From a virus (lineage: Duplodnaviria > Heunggongvirae > Uroviricota > Caudoviricetes), in the IMG/VR virus record IMGVR_UViG_2698536657_000008, positions 1 to 22,124 of that record: DNA of 22,124 nt. One strand, given 5' to 3'. Under the pieces are notes generated by a model. That model made no database searches and was not told where the DNA came from. It worked only from the letters and a program-made list of their open reading frames with translations. The position numbers and the translations under genes were made by a program. Below are positions 3,110 through 9,753 of the stretch, in pieces; position 1 is the stretch's first letter, and each line of letters opens with the position of its first letter.

Positions 3110-5009
3110 TATGATGGCTGCCGTTTCGGTTGCGCTGCAGCCTCTGGTCAGGGTTGTGCCGATGACGGCAGTTGAATGGGCTGATCAAAATTATTATCTG
3201 CCGAAAGAATCCTCATACGGTGACGGCGAATGGAAAACGCTGCCGTTCCAGGTCGCCATCATGAACTGTATGGGTAACGACCAGGTTCGCACGGTTAATC
3301 TGATAAAATCTGCCCGTGTTGGCTATACAAAGATGTTGCTGGGTGTCGCCGGGTATTTTATTGAACATAAATCCCGAAACTGTCTGCTTTTTCAGCCCAC
3401 GGATTCTGCCGCTGAAGATTTTATGAAATCTCACGTGGAATCCACGATTCGCGATGTTCCCTGTCTGAAAGCCCTTTCTCCCTGGCTGGGACGTAAACAT
3501 CGTGATAATACCCTCACGCTGAAACGCTTTTCATCGGGTGTGGGTTTCTGGTGCCTGGGTGGTGCTGCCGCCAAAAACTACCGTGAAAAATCCGTGGACG
3601 TGGTCTGCTATGACGAACTTTCCTCGTTCGAGCCGGATGTCGAAAAAGAGGGCTCGCCAACCCTGCTGGGGGATAAACGTATTGAGGGTTCTGTATGGCC
3701 AAAATCCATTCGCGGCTCGACGCCAAAAATAAAAGGCACCTGCCAGATCGAAAAAGCGGCCAACGAGTCGGCGCATTTCATGCGTTTTTATGTTCCCTGC
3801 CCGCACTGTGGGGAGGAGCAGTATCTGAAATTTGGCGATGAATCCACGCCTTTTGGCCTTAAATGGGAGAAGGACAGCCCCGAAAGCGTTTTCTACCTCT
3901 GTGAACATCATGGCTGCGTGATCCATCAGTCTGAGCTTGACCAGAGCAACGGGCGCTGGATCTGTGAAAACACGGGGATGTGGACCCGTGACGGCCTGAT
4001 GTTTTTCAGCGCCCGGGGTGATGAAATTCCACCACCGCGCTCCATCACGTTCCATATCTGGACGGCGTACAGTCCGTTCACCACCTGGGTACAGATAGTC
4101 TATGACTGGCTGGATGCACTGAAAGATCCCAACGGCGTGAAAACCTTTGTGAACACCACGCTGGGCGAGACCTGGGAAGAGGCTGTGGGCGAAAAACTTG
4201 ATCACCAGGTGCTGATGGATAAGGTCGTGCATTACACGGCGGCGGTACCTGACCGGGTGGTTTATCTGACGGCGGGCATTGACTCGCAGCGAAACCGTTT
4301 TGAGATGTATGTCTGGGGATGGGCACCGGGAGAGGAAGCCTTTCTGGTGGATAAAATCATCATTATGGGCCGTCCTGATGAGGAAGAGACGCTGTTACGT
4401 GTGGATGCGGCGATCAACAAAAAATACCGCCATGCAGATGGTGCCGAAATGACCATTTCCCGTGTCTGCTGGGACACCGGGGGGATCGATGGCGAAATCG
4501 TTTATCAGAGGTCAAAAAAACACGGTGTTTTCCGGGTGCTGCCGGTAAAAGGCGCATCTGTCTATGGCAAGCCGGTGATCACCATGCCAAAAACCCGCAA
4601 TCAGCGGGGCGTGTATCTGTGTGAAGTGGGGACGGACACCGCAAAAGAAATTCTCTATGCCCGTATGAAAGCCGATCCCACGCCTGCGGATGAAGCCACG
4701 TCGTATGCCATCCGTTTTCCTGATGATCCGGAGATTTTTTCGCAGACAGAGGCGCAGCAACTGGTGGCGGAAGAGCTTGTGGAGAAGTGGGAAAAAGGAA
4801 AGATGCGTCTGCTGTGGGATAACAAAAAGCGGCGTAACGAAGCGCTGGACTGCCTGGTGTATGCCTACGCGGCATTACGTGTGTCCGTGCAACGCTGGCA
4901 GCTTGATCTGGCTGTACTGGCAAAATCCCGGGAAGAAGAGACGACCCGGCCAACCCTTAAAGAACTGGCAGCGAAGCTGTCCGGAGGAGTGAATGGTTAC
5001 AGTCGCTGA
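3081..5009 (+). CDS. A: Terminase large subunit (gpA-like; ATPase/endonuclease)
   Basis: Start at ATG 3081 (MNISEQQ...), overlapping the Nu1 3' end as in lambda. Very strong similarity to lambda gpA throughout (e.g. AVEWAD.NYYLPKES, SPFTTWVQIV, VNTTLGETWE). Confidence 0.95.
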   Translation: MNISEQQLNNMMAAVSVALQPLVRVVPMTAVEWADQNYYLPKESSYGDGEWKTLPFQVAIMNCMGNDQVRTVNLIKSARVGYTKMLLGVAGYFIEHKSRNCLLFQPTDSAAEDFMKSHVESTIRDVPCLKALSPWLGRKHRDNTLTLKRFSSGVGFWCLGGAAAKNYREKSVDVVCYDELSSFEPDVEKEGSPTLLGDKRIEGSVWPKSIRGSTPKIKGTCQIEKAANESAHFMRFYVPCPHCGEEQYLKFGDESTPFGLKWEKDSPESVFYLCEHHGCVIHQSELDQSNGRWICENTGMWTRDGLMFFSARGDEIPPPRSITFHIWTAYSPFTTWVQIVYDWLDALKDPNGVKTFVNTTLGETWEEAVGEKLDHQVLMDKVVHYTAAVPDRVVYLTAGIDSQRNRFEMYVWGWAPGEEAFLVDKIIIMGRPDEEETLLRVDAAINKKYRHADGAEMTISRVCWDTGGIDGEIVYQRSKKHGVFRVLPVKGASVYGKPVITMPKTRNQRGVYLCEVGTDTAKEILYARMKADPTPADEATSYAIRFPDDPEIFSQTEAQQLVAEELVEKWEKGKMRLLWDNKKRRNEALDCLVYAYAALRVSVQRWQLDLAVLAKSREEETTRPTLKELAAKLSGGVNGYSR

Positions 5010-5199
5010 ACTGCAGGCGCTGCGTCAGGCGCGCCTTGATTTATTAACCGGTAAACGGGTGGTGTCTGTCCAGAAAGATGGTCGCAAAATTGAATATACG
5101 GCGGCCTCTCTGGATGAGCTTAACCGTGCGATCAATGATGCTGAGTCGGTACTGGGGACAACCCGACGTCGCCGTCGTCCGCTGGGAGTGAGGTTATGA
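4993..5199 (+). CDS. W: Head-tail joining / head-completion protein (gpW-like)
   Basis: 68 aa, same length as lambda gpW, with similar sequence (L.TGKRV..VQKDGR..E.TA.S). GGAGG before the ATG. Position between A and B. Confidence 0.9.
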   Translation: MVTVAELQALRQARLDLLTGKRVVSVQKDGRKIEYTAASLDELNRAINDAESVLGTTRRRRRPLGVRL

Positions 5200-6788
5200 A
5201 ACGAACGCCTGTCCTGATTGATGTGAACGGCGTTCCGCTTCGTGAGAGTCTCAGCTACCACGGGGGCGGCGCAGGATTTGGCGGGCAAATGGCGAAGTGG
5301 TTGCCACCGGCGCAGAGTGCCGATGCGGCCCTGCTGCCCGCGTTGCGTCTGGGGAATGCCCGGGCAGATGATCTGGTGCGCAATAACGGAATAGCGGCCA
5401 ATGCGGTTGCCCTGCATAAGGATCACATTGTCGGGCATATGTTTCTGATCAGCTACCGTCCGAACTGGCGCTGGCTGGGGATGCGGGAGACTGCGGCAAA
5501 AAGTTTTGTCGATGAGGTGGAGGCGGCCTGGTCGGAATACGCCGAAGGGATGTCTGGCGAGATCGACGTGGAAGGGAAACGCACGTTTACGGAATTTATC
5601 CGTGAAGGTGTGGGCGTTCATGCCTTTAACGGCGAAATCTTTGTGCAGCCGGTCTGGGATACGGAGAGCACGCAGCTGTTTCGTACGCGTTTTAAAGCCG
5701 TGAGTCCGAAACGGGTGGACACGCCGGGACACGGTATGGGGAACCGCTTTCTGCGGGCCGGTGTGGAAGTCGATCGATATGGCCGTGCCGTTGCGTACCA
5801 TATCTGTGAGGATGATTTTCCGTTCCCGGGTAGTGGTCGATGGGAGCGGATCCCGCGTGAACTTCCCACCGGGCGTCCGGCCATGCTGCATATTTTCGAG
5901 CCGGTGGAGGACGGGCAGACCCGTGGGGCCAATCAGTTTTACAGCGTCATGGAACGGCTGAAGATGCTCGATTCCCTGCAGGCAACACAGCTTCAGTCGG
6001 CCATTGTCAGGGCAATGTATGCAGCGACGATTGAAAGTGAACTTGATACCGAAAAGGCCTTTGAATATATCGCCGGTGCGCCGCAGGGGCAGAAGGATAA
6101 TCCGCTTATTCATATTCTGGAGAAGTTCTCCAGCTGGTATGACACGAATCACGTGACGCTGGGCGGTGTCAAAATTCCGCACCTTTTTCCCGGTGATGAT
6201 CTGAAACTGCAGACTGCGCAGGATTCAGACAATGGATTTTCTGCGCTTGAACAGGCGCTGCTGCGGTATATCGCCGCCGGTCTTGGCGTTTCCTACGAAC
6301 AGTTGTCCCGTGATTACTCGAAGGTCAGTTACTCAAGTGCCCGCGCCTCCGCCAATGAGTCGTGGCGCTATTTTATGGGACAACGAAAATTTATAGCGTC
6401 CCGGCTGGCCACGCAGATGTTTTCCTGCTGGCTGGAAGAGGCACTTCTTCGGGGGATTATTCGTCCGCCACGGGCGCGTTTTGATTTTTATCAGGCGCGT
6501 TCAGCCTGGTCACGGGCAGAGTGGATTGGTGCCGGAAGAATGGCCATTGACGGGCTCAAGGAAGTCCAGGAATCAGTGATGCGCATTGAGGCCGGACTGA
6601 GCACGTATGAGAAAGAGCTGGCGCTGATGGGCGAGGATTATCAGGACATTTTCCGCCAGCAGGTCAGGGAATCCGCAGAGCGGGAAAAAGCCGGACTCTC
6701 ACGCCCGGTGTGGATAGCGCAGGCGTATCAGCAGCAGATAGCGGAGAGTCGCAGGCCGGAAGAGGAGACAACACCACGTGAGACGTAA
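5196..6788 (+). CDS. B: Portal protein (gpB-like)
   Basis: 530 aa. Strong similarity to lambda gpB (YHGGG.GFGGQ, EPVEDGQTRGAN.FYSVME, LLRYIAAGLGVSYEQLSR). ATGA start-stop overlap with W. Confidence 0.95.
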   Translation: MKRTPVLIDVNGVPLRESLSYHGGGAGFGGQMAKWLPPAQSADAALLPALRLGNARADDLVRNNGIAANAVALHKDHIVGHMFLISYRPNWRWLGMRETAAKSFVDEVEAAWSEYAEGMSGEIDVEGKRTFTEFIREGVGVHAFNGEIFVQPVWDTESTQLFRTRFKAVSPKRVDTPGHGMGNRFLRAGVEVDRYGRAVAYHICEDDFPFPGSGRWERIPRELPTGRPAMLHIFEPVEDGQTRGANQFYSVMERLKMLDSLQATQLQSAIVRAMYAATIESELDTEKAFEYIAGAPQGQKDNPLIHILEKFSSWYDTNHVTLGGVKIPHLFPGDDLKLQTAQDSDNGFSALEQALLRYIAAGLGVSYEQLSRDYSKVSYSSARASANESWRYFMGQRKFIASRLATQMFSCWLEEALLRGIIRPPRARFDFYQARSAWSRAEWIGAGRMAIDGLKEVQESVMRIEAGLSTYEKELALMGEDYQDIFRQQVRESAEREKAGLSRPVWIAQAYQQQIAESRRPEEETTPRET

Positions 6789-8283
6789 TCTTTCACACAT
6801 AATTGCCGCAGCATTCAATGAACCGCTGCTTCTGGAGCCCGCCTATGCGCGGGTTTTCTTTTGCGCGCTGGGGCGCGAGATGGGGGCAGCAAGTCTTTCG
6901 GTACCACAACAGCAGGTACAGCTTGATGCTCCCGGAATGCTGGCTGAAACGGATGAGTTCATGGCCGGAGGTAAACGACCGGCCCGTGTTTACCGGGTGG
7001 TGAACGGTATTGCGGTACTGCCGGTGACCGGCACGCTGGTGCACCGGCTGGGTGGTATGCGGCCATTTTCCGGAATGACAGGTTATGACGGCATTGTAGC
7101 CTGTCTTCAGCAGGCAATGGCAGACACCTCTGTCCGTGGCGTACTGCTGGACATTGACAGTCCGGGCGGTCAGGCCGCCGGTGCGTTTGACTGCGCTGAC
7201 ATGATTTACCGCCTCCGCCAGCAGAAGCCTGTCTGGGCACTGTGCAATGACACGGCCTGTTCTGCGGCCATGCTGCTGGCGTCGGCCTGCTCCCGACGGC
7301 TGGTTACCCAGACATCCCGTATCGGCTCCATTGGCGTGATGATGAGCCATGTCAGCTATGCCGGTCATCTGGCGCAGGCCGGAGTGGATATCACGCTGAT
7401 TTATGCCGGGGCGCACAAGGTGGATGGCAATCAGTTTGAAGCCTTACCGGCAGAGGTGCGTCAGGACATGCAGCAGCGCATTGATGCGGCGCACCGGATG
7501 TTTGCCGAAAAAGTGGCGATGTATACCGGGCTGTCTGTGGATGCGGTCACGGGGACAGAGGCTGCCGTTTTTGAAGGTCAGTCCGGTATTGAGGCCGGGC
7601 TGGCGGATGAATTAATCAATGCGTCGGATGCCATCAGTGTGATGGCTGCGGCGCTGAACAGTAATGTCAGAGGAGGCACTATGCCGCAATTAACCGCAAC
7701 GGAAGCTGCCGCGCAGGAGAACCAGCGGGTGATGGGGATCCTGACGTGTCAGGAAGCGAAAGGACGTGAACAGCTTGCCACGATGCTGGCAGGACAACAG
7801 GGCATGAGCGTTGAACAGGCCCGGGCGATTCTGGCCGCGGCAGCACCACAGCAGCCGGTGGCATCCGCGCAGAGTGAAGCCGATCGCATTATGGCGTGTG
7901 AAGAAGCTAAAGGTCGTGAACAACTGGCGGCAACGCTGGCGGCGATGCCGGATATGACGGTGGAAAAAGCCCGCCCGATCCTGGCTGCTTCACCGCAGGC
8001 GGATGCCGGCCCCTCACTCCGTGATCAGATTATGGCTCTGGATGAGGCAAAAGGGGCTGAGGCGCAGGCTGAAAAACTGGCGGCGTTTCCCGGAATGACG
8101 GTGGAGGCTGCCCGCGACATTCTGTCCTCATCTCCGGATAAAGCAGAACCGGTTTCTGCATCCACAACCGCCATGTTTGAACGCATCATGGCGAACCATT
8201 CACCGGCAGCGGTACAGGGGGGCGTGTCACAGACCTCGGCAGACGGTGATGCGGACGTGAAAATGCTCATGGCCATGCCATGA
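6778..8283 (+). CDS. C: Prohead protease / capsid assembly protein (gpC-like, S49/ClpP-fold) with C-terminal scaffold-like extension
   Basis: Strong similarity to lambda gpC in the N-terminal ~330 aa (FNEPL.LEPAYARVFFCAL, VMNGIAVLPV.GTL, VWAL.ND..CSA). Apparent GTG start at 6778 overlapping the B 3' end; exact start uncertain. The C-terminal region is longer than lambda's because of a triplicated motif. Confidence 0.88.
   Translation: MRRNLSHIIAAAFNEPLLLEPAYARVFFCALGREMGAASLSVPQQQVQLDAPGMLAETDEFMAGGKRPARVYRVVNGIAVLPVTGTLVHRLGGMRPFSGMTGYDGIVACLQQAMADTSVRGVLLDIDSPGGQAAGAFDCADMIYRLRQQKPVWALCNDTACSAAMLLASACSRRLVTQTSRIGSIGVMMSHVSYAGHLAQAGVDITLIYAGAHKVDGNQFEALPAEVRQDMQQRIDAAHRMFAEKVAMYTGLSVDAVTGTEAAVFEGQSGIEAGLADELINASDAISVMAAALNSNVRGGTMPQLTATEAAAQENQRVMGILTCQEAKGREQLATMLAGQQGMSVEQARAILAAAAPQQPVASAQSEADRIMACEEAKGREQLAATLAAMPDMTVEKARPILAASPQADAGPSLRDQIMALDEAKGAEAQAEKLAAFPGMTVEAARDILSSSPDKAEPVSASTTAMFERIMANHSPAAVQGGVSQTSADGDADVKMLMAMP
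7498..8283 (+). CDS. Nu3: Candidate nested in-frame scaffold protein (gpNu3-like), sharing frame and stop with C
   Basis: By analogy with lambda, where Nu3 is translated from an internal in-frame start in the 3' third of C. The in-frame ATG at 7498 (MFAEKVAMYTGLSV...) lies at the position equivalent to the lambda Nu3 start as recalled. The start is not proven. Confidence 0.35.
   Translation: MFAEKVAMYTGLSVDAVTGTEAAVFEGQSGIEAGLADELINASDAISVMAAALNSNVRGGTMPQLTATEAAAQENQRVMGILTCQEAKGREQLATMLAGQQGMSVEQARAILAAAAPQQPVASAQSEADRIMACEEAKGREQLAATLAAMPDMTVEKARPILAASPQADAGPSLRDQIMALDEAKGAEAQAEKLAAFPGMTVEAARDILSSSPDKAEPVSASTTAMFERIMANHSPAAVQGGVSQTSADGDADVKMLMAMP
7726..8160 (+). repeat. Intragenic tandem triplication of a ~45-residue motif in the C/Nu3 C-terminal region
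   Basis: Motif [RQ]-[IV]-M-x3-EAKG-x-E-x-LA-x2-LA-x2-P-x-MTVE-x-AR-x-IL-x3-P occurs three times in frame, with the motif ATG at 7732, 7891 and 8032 (units of 159 and 141 nt). Lambda has a single copy as recalled. Confidence 0.6.
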
Positions 8284-8319: not shown

Positions 8320-8667
8320 ATGGTAACGAAAACCATCACTGAACAACGTGCAGAAGTACGTATTTTTGCCGGTAATGATCCGGCTCATACCGCCACAGGC
8401 AGCAGCGGGATTTCTCAGGCAACACCGGCACTGACGCCCCTGATGCTGGATGAAGCCAGCGGGAAACTGGTGGTCTGGGACGGACAGAAAGCCGGTAGTG
8501 CGGTTGGCATACTGGTACTGCCGCTTGAAGGCACAGAGACGGTGCTGACGTATTACAAGTCGGGGACCTTTGCGACGGAGGCAATCCGCTGGCCTGAAAG
8601 TGTGGATGAACACAAAAAGGCCAACGCCTTTGCAGGAAGTGCCCTGAGTCACGCGGCGCTGCCGTAA
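8320..8667 (+). CDS. D: Head decoration protein (gpD-like)
   Basis: 115 aa. Similarity to lambda gpD (DPAHTAT, TPLMLD, GILV...YKSGTF, FAG.A.S). Confidence 0.9.
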   Translation: MVTKTITEQRAEVRIFAGNDPAHTATGSSGISQATPALTPLMLDEASGKLVVWDGQKAGSAVGILVLPLEGTETVLTYYKSGTFATEAIRWPESVDEHKKANAFAGSALSHAALP

Positions 8668-8675
8668 CACGTTAT

Positions 8676-8695
8676 CAGGCCACCACGGTGGCCTG
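8676..8695 (+). other. GC-rich hairpin in the D-E intergenic region
   Basis: CAGGCCAC (8676-8683) pairs with GTGGCCTG (8688-8695) around a 4-nt loop. No clean downstream T-tract, so more likely an mRNA structure than a terminator. Confidence 0.3.
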
Positions 8696-8724
8696 ACTGA
8701 TTTCTGAATGAAAGGAACTGATTT

Positions 8725-9753
8725 ATGGGATTGTTTACGACCCGCCAGTTACTCGGTTATACCGAACAAAAAGTGAAATTTCGTGCGCTGTTTCTGGAGC
8801 TGTTTTTCCGCCGTACGGTGAACTTCCACACCGAAGAGGTGATGCTGGACAAAATTACCGGAAAAACGCCGGTGGCAGCCTATGTTTCTCCGGTCGTTGA
8901 AGGAAAAGTACTGCGTCATCGTGGTGGTGAAACCCGCGTGTTGCGTCCGGGCTACGTCAAGCCGAAACACGAATTTAATTACCAGCAGGCGGTGGAGCGC
9001 CTTCCCGGTGAAGATCCGGCTCAACTGAACGACCCGACCTACCGTCGTCTGCGTATCATCACCGATAACCTCAAACAGGAAGAGCATGCCATTGTTCAGG
9101 TGGAAGAAATGCAGGCGGTGAATGCCGTGCTGTATGGCAAATACACCATGGAAGGAGACCAGTTCGAGAAAATTGAGGTCGATTTTGGCAGATCGACGAA
9201 GAATAACATCATACAGGGTAGCGGTAAGGAGTGGTCAAAACAGGACCGTGACACGTTCGACCCGACATATGATATCGACCTTTTCTGTGATCAGGCCAGC
9301 GGTCTTGTGAATATTGCCATTATGGACGGTACCGTCTGGCGTCTGCTGAATGGCTTTAAGCTGTTCCGCGAAAAACTGGATACCCGTCGCGGCTCAAATT
9401 CACAACTCGAAACGGCAGTGAAAGATCTGGGCGCAGTGGTGTCCTTCAAGGGGTATTACGGCGATCTGGCCATTGTGGTGGCGAAAACGTCTTATGTGGC
9501 AGAGGACGGTACCGAAAAACGTTATCTGCCGGAGGGCACGCTGGTCCTGGGGAATACGGCTGCAGATGGGCTCCGTTGTTACGGTGCCATTCAGGATGCG
9601 CAGGCGTTGTCCGAAGGTGTGGTGGCTTCTTCCCGTTACCCGAAACACTGGCAGACCGTGGGCGATCCGGCCCGTGAATTCACCATGACGCAGTCCGCAC
9701 CGCTGATGGTGCTGCCGGATCCGGATGAGTTTGTGGTGGTGCAGGTGAAATAA
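8725..9753 (+). CDS. E: Major capsid protein (gpE-like, HK97 fold)
   Basis: 342 aa. Strong similarity to lambda gpE (PGYVKPKHE, VEEMQAV.AVL.GKYTM, LDTRRGSNS.LETAVKDLG, TGDPAREFTM.QSAPLM). Confidence 0.95.
   Translation: MGLFTTRQLLGYTEQKVKFRALFLELFFRRTVNFHTEEVMLDKITGKTPVAAYVSPVVEGKVLRHRGGETRVLRPGYVKPKHEFNYQQAVERLPGEDPAQLNDPTYRRLRIITDNLKQEEHAIVQVEEMQAVNAVLYGKYTMEGDQFEKIEVDFGRSTKNNIIQGSGKEWSKQDRDTFDPTYDIDLFCDQASGLVNIAIMDGTVWRLLNGFKLFREKLDTRRGSNSQLETAVKDLGAVVSFKGYYGDLAIVVAKTSYVAEDGTEKRYLPEGTLVLGNTAADGLRCYGAIQDAQALSEGVVASSRYPKHWQTVGDPAREFTMTQSAPLMVLPDPDEFVVVQVK

Follow-up and report, generated by a model that had tools for sequence, protein, structure and literature searches.

A tandemly triplicated, predicted three-helix module in the protease/scaffold gene of a phage 21-type head module

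Why would the scaffold end of a phage head gene carry the same short protein motif three times in tandem, and what might the repeated element do? The questions arise from a 22,124-nucleotide (nt) stretch of tailed-phage DNA (Caudoviricetes; IMG/VR record IMGVR_UViG_2698536657_000008, positions 1 to 22,124; hereafter the window), wherein a 501-amino acid (aa) open reading frame (ORF) homologous to the lambda C gene holds three copies of the ~40-residue motif [R/Q]-[I/V]-M-x(2-5)-EAKG-x-E-x2-A-x2-LA-x3-x-M-[T/S]-V-E-x-AR-x-IL-x3-P. We judge, at a probability of about 80%, that this gene is the phage 21-type allele of C/Nu3 in an Escherichia coli prophage and that the repeat is a predicted three-helix module that may serve to bind a partner. 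The motif methionines M319, M372, and M419 lie at nt 7732, 7891, and 8032, which gives spacings of 159 and 141 nt. A sequence-only reading that preceded our analysis had named the same three ATG codons and unit lengths, in exact agreement with the sequence. The parts of the gene are as follows.

7726-7851, + strand: repeat unit 1 (aa 317-358), equivalent to the phage 21 Tri1 box, which maps to 7748-7851
7852-7884, + strand: linker 1 (QPVASAQSEAD), predicted to be flexible
7885-7998, + strand: repeat unit 2 (aa 370-407), equivalent to the phage 21 "Tri box," which maps to 7888-7998
7999-8025, + strand: linker 2 (ADAGPSLRD), with variable alignment columns and lowered predicted local distance difference test (pLDDT) scores
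8026-8142, + strand: repeat unit 3 (aa 417-455), equivalent to the phage 21 Tri3 box, which maps to 8029-8142
8143-8283, + strand: C-terminal tail, with a conserved F-x3-M-x3-SP helix and an acidic end closing in LMAMP
6778-8283, + strand: head maturation protease/scaffold fusion gene (GTG start, 501 aa), homologue of lambda C and phage 21 gene 5
7670-7676, + strand: Shine-Dalgarno sequence GAGGAGG for an internal in-frame start, read from the sequence
7681-8283, + strand: nested scaffold gene (200 aa, in frame with the protease C terminus), homologue of lambda Nu3 and phage 21 gene 6

In local protein alignments scored against 2000 shuffles, units 1 and 2 were identical at 24 of 37 positions (z = 16.7), units 2 and 3 at 24 of 38 (z = 16.7), and units 1 and 3 at 19 of 44 (z = 11.3). 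A profile built from 18 units recovered three domains in the window protein (aa 316-359, 366-408, and 413-457; independent E-values of 1e-22 to 1e-26), three at the same residues in gp5 of phage 21, three in the Gifsy-1 homologue, and one in lambda C (aa 364-403). This last result, together with the lambda alignment, bears out the expectation in the sequence-only reading that lambda C/Nu3 carries a single copy. Unit 1, which has a longer first helix (RVMGILTC), is the orthologue of that single lambda unit (29 of 48 residues identical, z = 21.6). The C-terminal tail starts out as if it were a fourth unit (ERIM) yet has no EAKG; its residues F166 and M170, as numbered in the 200-aa protein, are near-invariant across 20 homologues. 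At the DNA level all units are ~60-70% alike, with units 1 and 2 sharing 70% identity over 97 nt. Tandem Repeats Finder reported no repeat between 6700 and 8400; the repeat is detectable only in protein or with low-stringency DNA seeds. A non-coding function within the repeat was also considered and set aside, given that an Rfam search of the whole window returned no match and that scanning for promoter- and terminator-like sites found none inside 7726-8160.

The identity of the gene is established by its protease domain and by end-to-end comparisons. The first 300 residues make up an S49 serine peptidase: Peptidase_S49 (Pfam PF01343) matches aa 146-292 of the 501-aa ORF (E = 1.5e-35; score 122.9 bits, cut-off 24.9), and phrog_53 (head maturation protease) matches the protein from end to end (E = 1e-224). 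The protein is 58% identical to lambda C, and both S162 (in a C-S-A motif) and K214 (in H-K-V-D-G-N) are invariant between the two; from the S49 literature, we take these to be the catalytic residues. The internal ATG at 7681 is codon 302 of the long ORF, lies 4 nt after GAGGAGG, and is homologous both to the start of gene 6 in phage 21 and to M309 of lambda, upstream of which stands CAGGAGG. The nested 7681-8283 ORF maps onto the gene 6 coding sequence (CDS) of the phage 21 head operon record M81255.1 and, in the complete genome of phage 21 (OL657228.1), onto the CDS named "scaffolding protein," and the putative ribosome-binding site that M81255.1 annotates for gene 6 maps to window positions 7670-7674, overlapping GAGGAGG. 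PHROG matches of this part of the protein are to a head scaffolding protein (phrog_8399) and a capsid assembly protein (phrog_8940). We therefore infer from these sequence features that a separate 200-aa scaffold is expressed from ATG 7681.

The closest known counterpart is phage 21. Its gene 5 is 94.2% identical to the window gene over all 1506 nt without a gap (megablast against phage records), and the span from the portal gene to the capsid gene is 95.0% identical over 4506 ungapped nt. Phage 21 genes 5 and 6, which encode the head-tail preconnector gp5 and the scaffold gp6, also share with the window the internal start and its ribosome-binding site, the three units at identical codons, and the neighboring portal, shp, and capsid (gene 7) genes. 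The differences are allelic only, and the largest is a 100-nt mosaic patch at 8078-8177, where identity to phage 21 falls to 0.74 versus 0.89-1.00 in all other 100-nt bins over 4.5 kb. This patch covers the 3′ half of unit 3, which reads RDILSSSPDK in the window and RAVLAAGSGK in phage 21. A separate observation concerns phage D2 (OM475427.1), which matches the window gene only from gene nt 198, so that a mosaic junction lies inside the N-terminal part of its protease gene; its Nu3, decoration, and capsid genes remain 21-type.

The triplication itself is already known. M81255.1 marks gene 5 and, nested in it, gene 6 with a ribosome-binding site; within gene 6 it lists three repeat_region features, termed "Tri1 box," "Tri box," and "Tri3 box," each noted as "function unknown; putative." With an offset of +5277 into window coordinates, these boxes fall on the three motif copies, which have thus been in public annotation for decades as the phage 21 Tri boxes. 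The complete genome OL657228.1, reported in 2022 (PMC9119081), carries the same gene, annotated as a capsid protease/scaffolding protein with a nested scaffolding protein. That record also marks two "transcription factor CII" sites in gene 6, equivalent to window positions ~7686-7699 and ~7920-7933 on the minus strand. These are bare matches to the pattern TTGYN6TTGY that we think arose by chance, and they were set aside.

The three-unit form is also common. The 21-type segment was found at 2922 places in 1870 of 5426 complete E. coli genomes, and the 603-nt segment was present at ≥80% coverage in 1866 of them; the other four of the 1870 have no place that reaches this coverage. The one-unit, lambda-type segment was found in 3222 of the 5426 genomes, at 4553 places. 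Among phage records, 20 hold the full 21-type segment versus about 90 with the lambda type. In E. coli, the three-unit form is therefore one of the two alleles commonly found for this head module, and the idea that three copies are unusual is not supported, given the Tri boxes of M81255.1 and the genome counts: three copies are what phage 21-type relatives carry. The sequence-only reading had allowed that such a result would make the array simply the family norm, and for the phage 21-type head module this is so. Some of the copies counted lie in decayed modules. In EDL933 (L004 1995-2258) the capsid gene is truncated and fused beside a tail gene, and in O104:H4 FDAARGOS_349 frameshifts affect both the S49 gene and the decoration gene. 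The 1870 genomes therefore include some with cryptic prophage remnants.

These same records bear on whether the array might be an assembly artefact, a repeat expanded or collapsed by the software, which we regard as scarcely credible and have rejected, having found nothing in its favor. The units, at ~60-70% DNA identity, are too diverged to confuse an assembler. The 1506-nt length is shared by two independent phage 21 records (the Sanger-era fragment M81255.1 and OL657228.1) and by four other complete E. coli genomes that we checked, which have no internal stop in the gene; a fifth fetched copy, from O104:H4, is annotated as frameshifted. The presence of the repeat-bearing segment in so many complete genomes argues the same way. 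Thus, the view that the copies had diverged and reflect an older duplication was confirmed by the 70% DNA identity of units 1 and 2 and by the copies in phage 21, Gifsy-1, and E. coli.

The position of the gene within the phage head module was next read from its neighbors, which are listed here.

5196-6788, + strand: portal gene, homologue of lambda B and phage 21 gene 4, overlapping the start of the protease gene
8320-8667, + strand: head decoration gene, homologue of phage 21 shp (so annotated in M81255.1) and lambda D
8725-9753, + strand: major capsid gene, homologue of phage 21 gene 7 and lambda E

PHROG and lambda comparisons place the protease/scaffold gene between the portal gene (phrog_21, E = 2e-189; 61% protein identity to lambda B) and the decoration gene (phrog_49, E = 1.9e-30; 59% to lambda D) followed by the major capsid gene (major head protein matches phrog_2353, phrog_6020, and phrog_29; 61% to lambda E and 96% to phage 21 gp7). 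With the portal, decoration, and capsid genes as neighbors, 6778-8283 therefore occupies the C/Nu3 position of a lambdoid head module. The terminator scan also found a G+C-rich 9-bp hairpin, TCAGGCCACCACGGTGGCCTGA, followed by a T-containing tail at 8675-8696, between the decoration and major capsid genes.

Lambda C/Nu3 is homologous to the window protein through the protease domain and the first unit, has a nested gene with a Shine-Dalgarno-preceded internal ATG, and shares the gene order B-C/Nu3-D-E; the DRLM that follows its single unit is the equivalent of the ERIM of the window tail. It differs in having one unit rather than three and in carrying, upstream of that unit, a 36-aa low-complexity segment rich in Ser, Thr, and Ala that is absent from the window protein. 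The sequence-only reading had put the resulting extension of the C terminus at ~90 aa. The window protein is indeed the longer one, but by a net 62 aa for C (501 versus 439 aa) and 69 aa for the scaffold when both are counted from their homologous starts (200 versus 131 aa). This net gain is smaller than the ~100 aa of two units because of the 36-aa segment in lambda. On the lambda scaffold itself, we note that the RefSeq nu3 start (NC_001416, position 5132) corresponds to M239 of C, where no Shine-Dalgarno sequence was seen (…CTGCAGTCCCGGATG). The start homologous to window 7681 and to phage 21 gene 6 is M309 at 5342, which is preceded by CAGGAGGGCGA. Judging by these sequences, the RefSeq nu3 start looks misplaced, and Nu3 would be 131 aa rather than 201 aa. 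The Salmonella counterpart, STM2605 of Gifsy-1 (a lambda gpC homologue of 498 aa), has three positionally orthologous units, the same gene order, and a capsid protein 85% identical to that of the window. It differs in its C-terminal tail, which ends …LMSIPGTSAT, and in units that are 68-81% identical to those of the window, as measured in a closely related Salmonella sequence (P0025).

When did the array arise, and have all three copies been maintained? Matched by position, the units of the window and of P0025 are 81% (unit 1), 73% (unit 2), and 68% (unit 3) identical, whereas paralogous units within one protein are 46-62% identical. Because positional orthologues are closer than paralogues, the triplication predates the split between the E. 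coli and Salmonella prophage lineages. Across six E. coli and phage alleles of identical length, the ratio of non-synonymous to synonymous substitution rates (dN/dS) is 0.18 over the units versus 0.12 over the protease domain. Unit 1 shows no amino acid change at all among these alleles. The value of 0.67 for unit 2 is noisy, since this unit has few changes of either kind (13 synonymous and 26 non-synonymous differences across all 15 pairs combined). Synonymous divergence is 0.34 in unit 3 versus 0.03-0.11 in the other units. The invariant A/G/E/A/L/M/A positions are retained in all three units, in homologues down to 46% identity. Orthology by position and the dN/dS values together exclude an assembly artefact and argue against decay, and these sequence comparisons indicate that the array arose by an old tandem duplication with all three copies under purifying selection.

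A wider survey sets this array against its family. The unit profile matched 987 clusters (E ≤ 1e-3) among 1.84 billion representative proteins clustered at 50% identity. Within the best 150 of these 987 clusters, 128 have one unit, 17 have two, and five have three; for the full-length proteins (≥380 aa) among the same 150, the figures are 53, two, and one. One copy is therefore the norm of the family, and three copies are the norm of the phage 21/Gifsy lineage. A Pfam search of the window protein and its homologues found no model that covers the unit. Further variants came from a homologue search with the 200-aa scaffold, whose matches are mostly truncated fragments and so display which variants exist rather than how frequent they are. 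In five E. coli variants (P0021, P0022, P0012, P0013, and P0017), unit 2 is wholly or partly deleted in frame, with one such cluster holding 53 members, and a four-unit E. coli variant (P0026, 48 members) has units 2-4 that are 78-89% alike. A distant metagenomic S49 protease-scaffold (P0226; L010 4001-5410) has two units joined by a PPTPPTPPTPP linker, in the gene order terminase-portal-S49-HDPD-Phage_cap_E. Distant two-unit proteins such as this one duplicated independently because their units resemble each other more than enteric units do. Two representative proteins (P0148 and P0145) join the C protease and a single unit to a tail protein, either L or U; these are most likely deletion chimeras in decayed prophages.

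Such variants raise the prospect that the two extra units are redundant, in which case the array would be a harmless, neutral or nearly neutral tandem duplication that merely lengthens a flexible scaffold chain. One unit suffices in lambda, both unit-2-less and four-unit forms occur in E. coli, and lambda gpNu3 itself is reportedly intrinsically disordered yet functional, as the title of a 2011 article by Medina and colleagues has it. Nevertheless, we consider redundancy improbable. Each unit has kept its invariant positions across distant homologues, the overall dN/dS is low, and positional orthology between E. coli and Salmonella speaks for long retention. Deletion variants are rare among complete genomes, as judged from the four genomes in 1870 that lack a sufficiently covered segment, and duplications occurred independently in distant lineages.

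We then considered what structure a unit might adopt. AlphaFold2 modeling of a single unit from the 18-unit alignment placed helices at residues 2-10, 19-26, and 33-42 and a short turn at EAKG, with a pLDDT of 83. In a model of the 200-aa protein, each unit was again predicted as three helices with a pLDDT of 70-80, and the predicted template modeling score (pTM) was 0.27. In this model the linker 1 region (residues 58-63) had a pLDDT below 50, and the 10-residue block spanning linker 2 averaged 63. Confidence was lowest in the tail, wherein a helix was predicted at residues 161-172. The low pTM and the low-confidence linkers fit an arrangement of independent beads on a string, and this arrangement agrees with the reported disorder of lambda gpNu3. 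Each unit is thus predicted to be a small, self-folding three-helix bundle, with flexible linkers rich in Pro, Ala, and Gln between the bundles. A PDB sequence search with the unit profile gave chance-level matches only (e.g., hemoglobin and designed repeat proteins). Foldseek comparison of the 200-aa model with the PDB returned nothing below E = 1, which we attribute to the beads-on-a-string form of that model. The predicted unit resembles staphylococcal protein A domains, UBA/CUE domains, and RuvA domain III in fold only, with low scores and 2-19% identity.

What, then, might such a module do? We tentatively propose, at somewhat short of an even chance, that the unit is the partner-binding module of the scaffold and that it most likely binds the major capsid protein, of the lambda E type, on its inner face. 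The long ORF would yield an S49 protease with a scaffold tail, and the internal start at ATG 7681 would yield the 200-aa scaffold alone. During procapsid assembly, the unit may hold the inner face of the capsid protein, much as a C-terminal helix-turn-helix does for the scaffold of P22. Since the protease ends in the same C terminus as the scaffold, it too would be brought into the procapsid by the unit. The three units would then form a trivalent chain able to engage up to three capsid subunits, with higher avidity and possibly fewer chains per shell than a monovalent lambda Nu3. An effect on scaffold-capsid interaction or stoichiometry, which the sequence-only reading had raised, is plausible.

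The capsid protein is favored as partner because a Nu3-E interaction has been reported, because the unit is widely conserved together with E-type capsid genes, and because of the analogy to P22. In two-hybrid tests, lambda Nu3 interacts with E, with C, and with itself (PMC3224144), and the lambda scaffold is needed for procapsid assembly and is degraded by the protease (PMC3224144, PMC10695390). The P22 scaffold gp8 binds coat protein via a C-terminal helix-turn-helix, with each copy on one coat subunit inside the procapsid (PMC9965877). The likeness to gp8 is one of functional analogy only, namely a small helical element near the C terminus of an otherwise flexible scaffold. In P22 gp8 the element consists of two helices, occurs once in each chain, and comes without a protease, whereas the window protein has three predicted helices, three copies, and a linked S49 protease that would remove the scaffold. 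Neither sequence nor fold homology to the gp8 C-terminal domain was found, and the PDB profile search gave nothing significant. Across the 987 clusters, conservation within the scaffold region is confined to the unit; the tail is not conserved outside the enteric group.

A different account is that the units are real modules whose partner is not the capsid protein. They could serve scaffold self-association, or they could bind the portal or the protease domain within a B-C-Nu3 initiator complex. This we regard as rather unlikely, although it has points in its favor: the literature curated in the same source (PMC3224144) includes interactions of Nu3 with B, with C, and with itself, as well as an "ill-defined initiator structure" made up of B, C, and Nu3, and the conserved tail beyond the units could itself bind the capsid. 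However, that source also lists the Nu3-E two-hybrid interaction, found with two vector pairs, and the tail is restricted to enteric relatives, unlike the unit. The distant P0226 locus pairs the unit with a Phage_cap_E-type capsid gene but does not discriminate, as portal and S49 genes are present there too.

Several further points weigh against a trivalent, capsid-binding array. Three-unit scaffolds and 21-type capsid proteins are found together, in the same 19 phage records, but this lends the proposal little support, since only 440 bp separate the two genes and tight linkage alone predicts the pairing. Instead of the capsid protein, the unit could bind the portal, the protease domain, or a further scaffold chain, and the PDB profile search found no solved structure related to the unit by sequence. 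Unless the prophages concerned are defective, the in-frame loss of unit 2 in several E. coli variants implies that three copies may be dispensable. With one unit, lambda makes its shell from a 61%-identical capsid protein of the same length, so trivalency is not needed for this capsid type. Finally, the conserved F-x3-M-x3-SP of the tail could be the capsid-binding element in place of the unit; herpesvirus and other scaffolds carry their capsid-binding element in the C-terminal tail.

It is doubtful, yet worth stating, that unit copy number (one in lambda and two to four elsewhere, with independent duplications) is an evolved setting of scaffold valency. If so, copy number would tune scaffold:capsid stoichiometry and assembly fidelity on homologous E-type capsids of the same length, and the lambda/21 pair would be a natural and genetically tractable valency series. 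Historical lambda/21 hybrids are on record (PMC9119081).

As a discovery, the triplication carries little weight and is an ordinary finding, since the Tri boxes were already annotated and are common in E. coli. Its interest lies in the module: about a thousand 50%-identity clusters carry a unit that has no Pfam family, and the function of the Tri boxes is labeled unknown in the phage 21 record. The natural series of one-, two-, three-, and four-unit scaffolds on homologous E-type capsid modules could be used to relate scaffold valency to capsid assembly.

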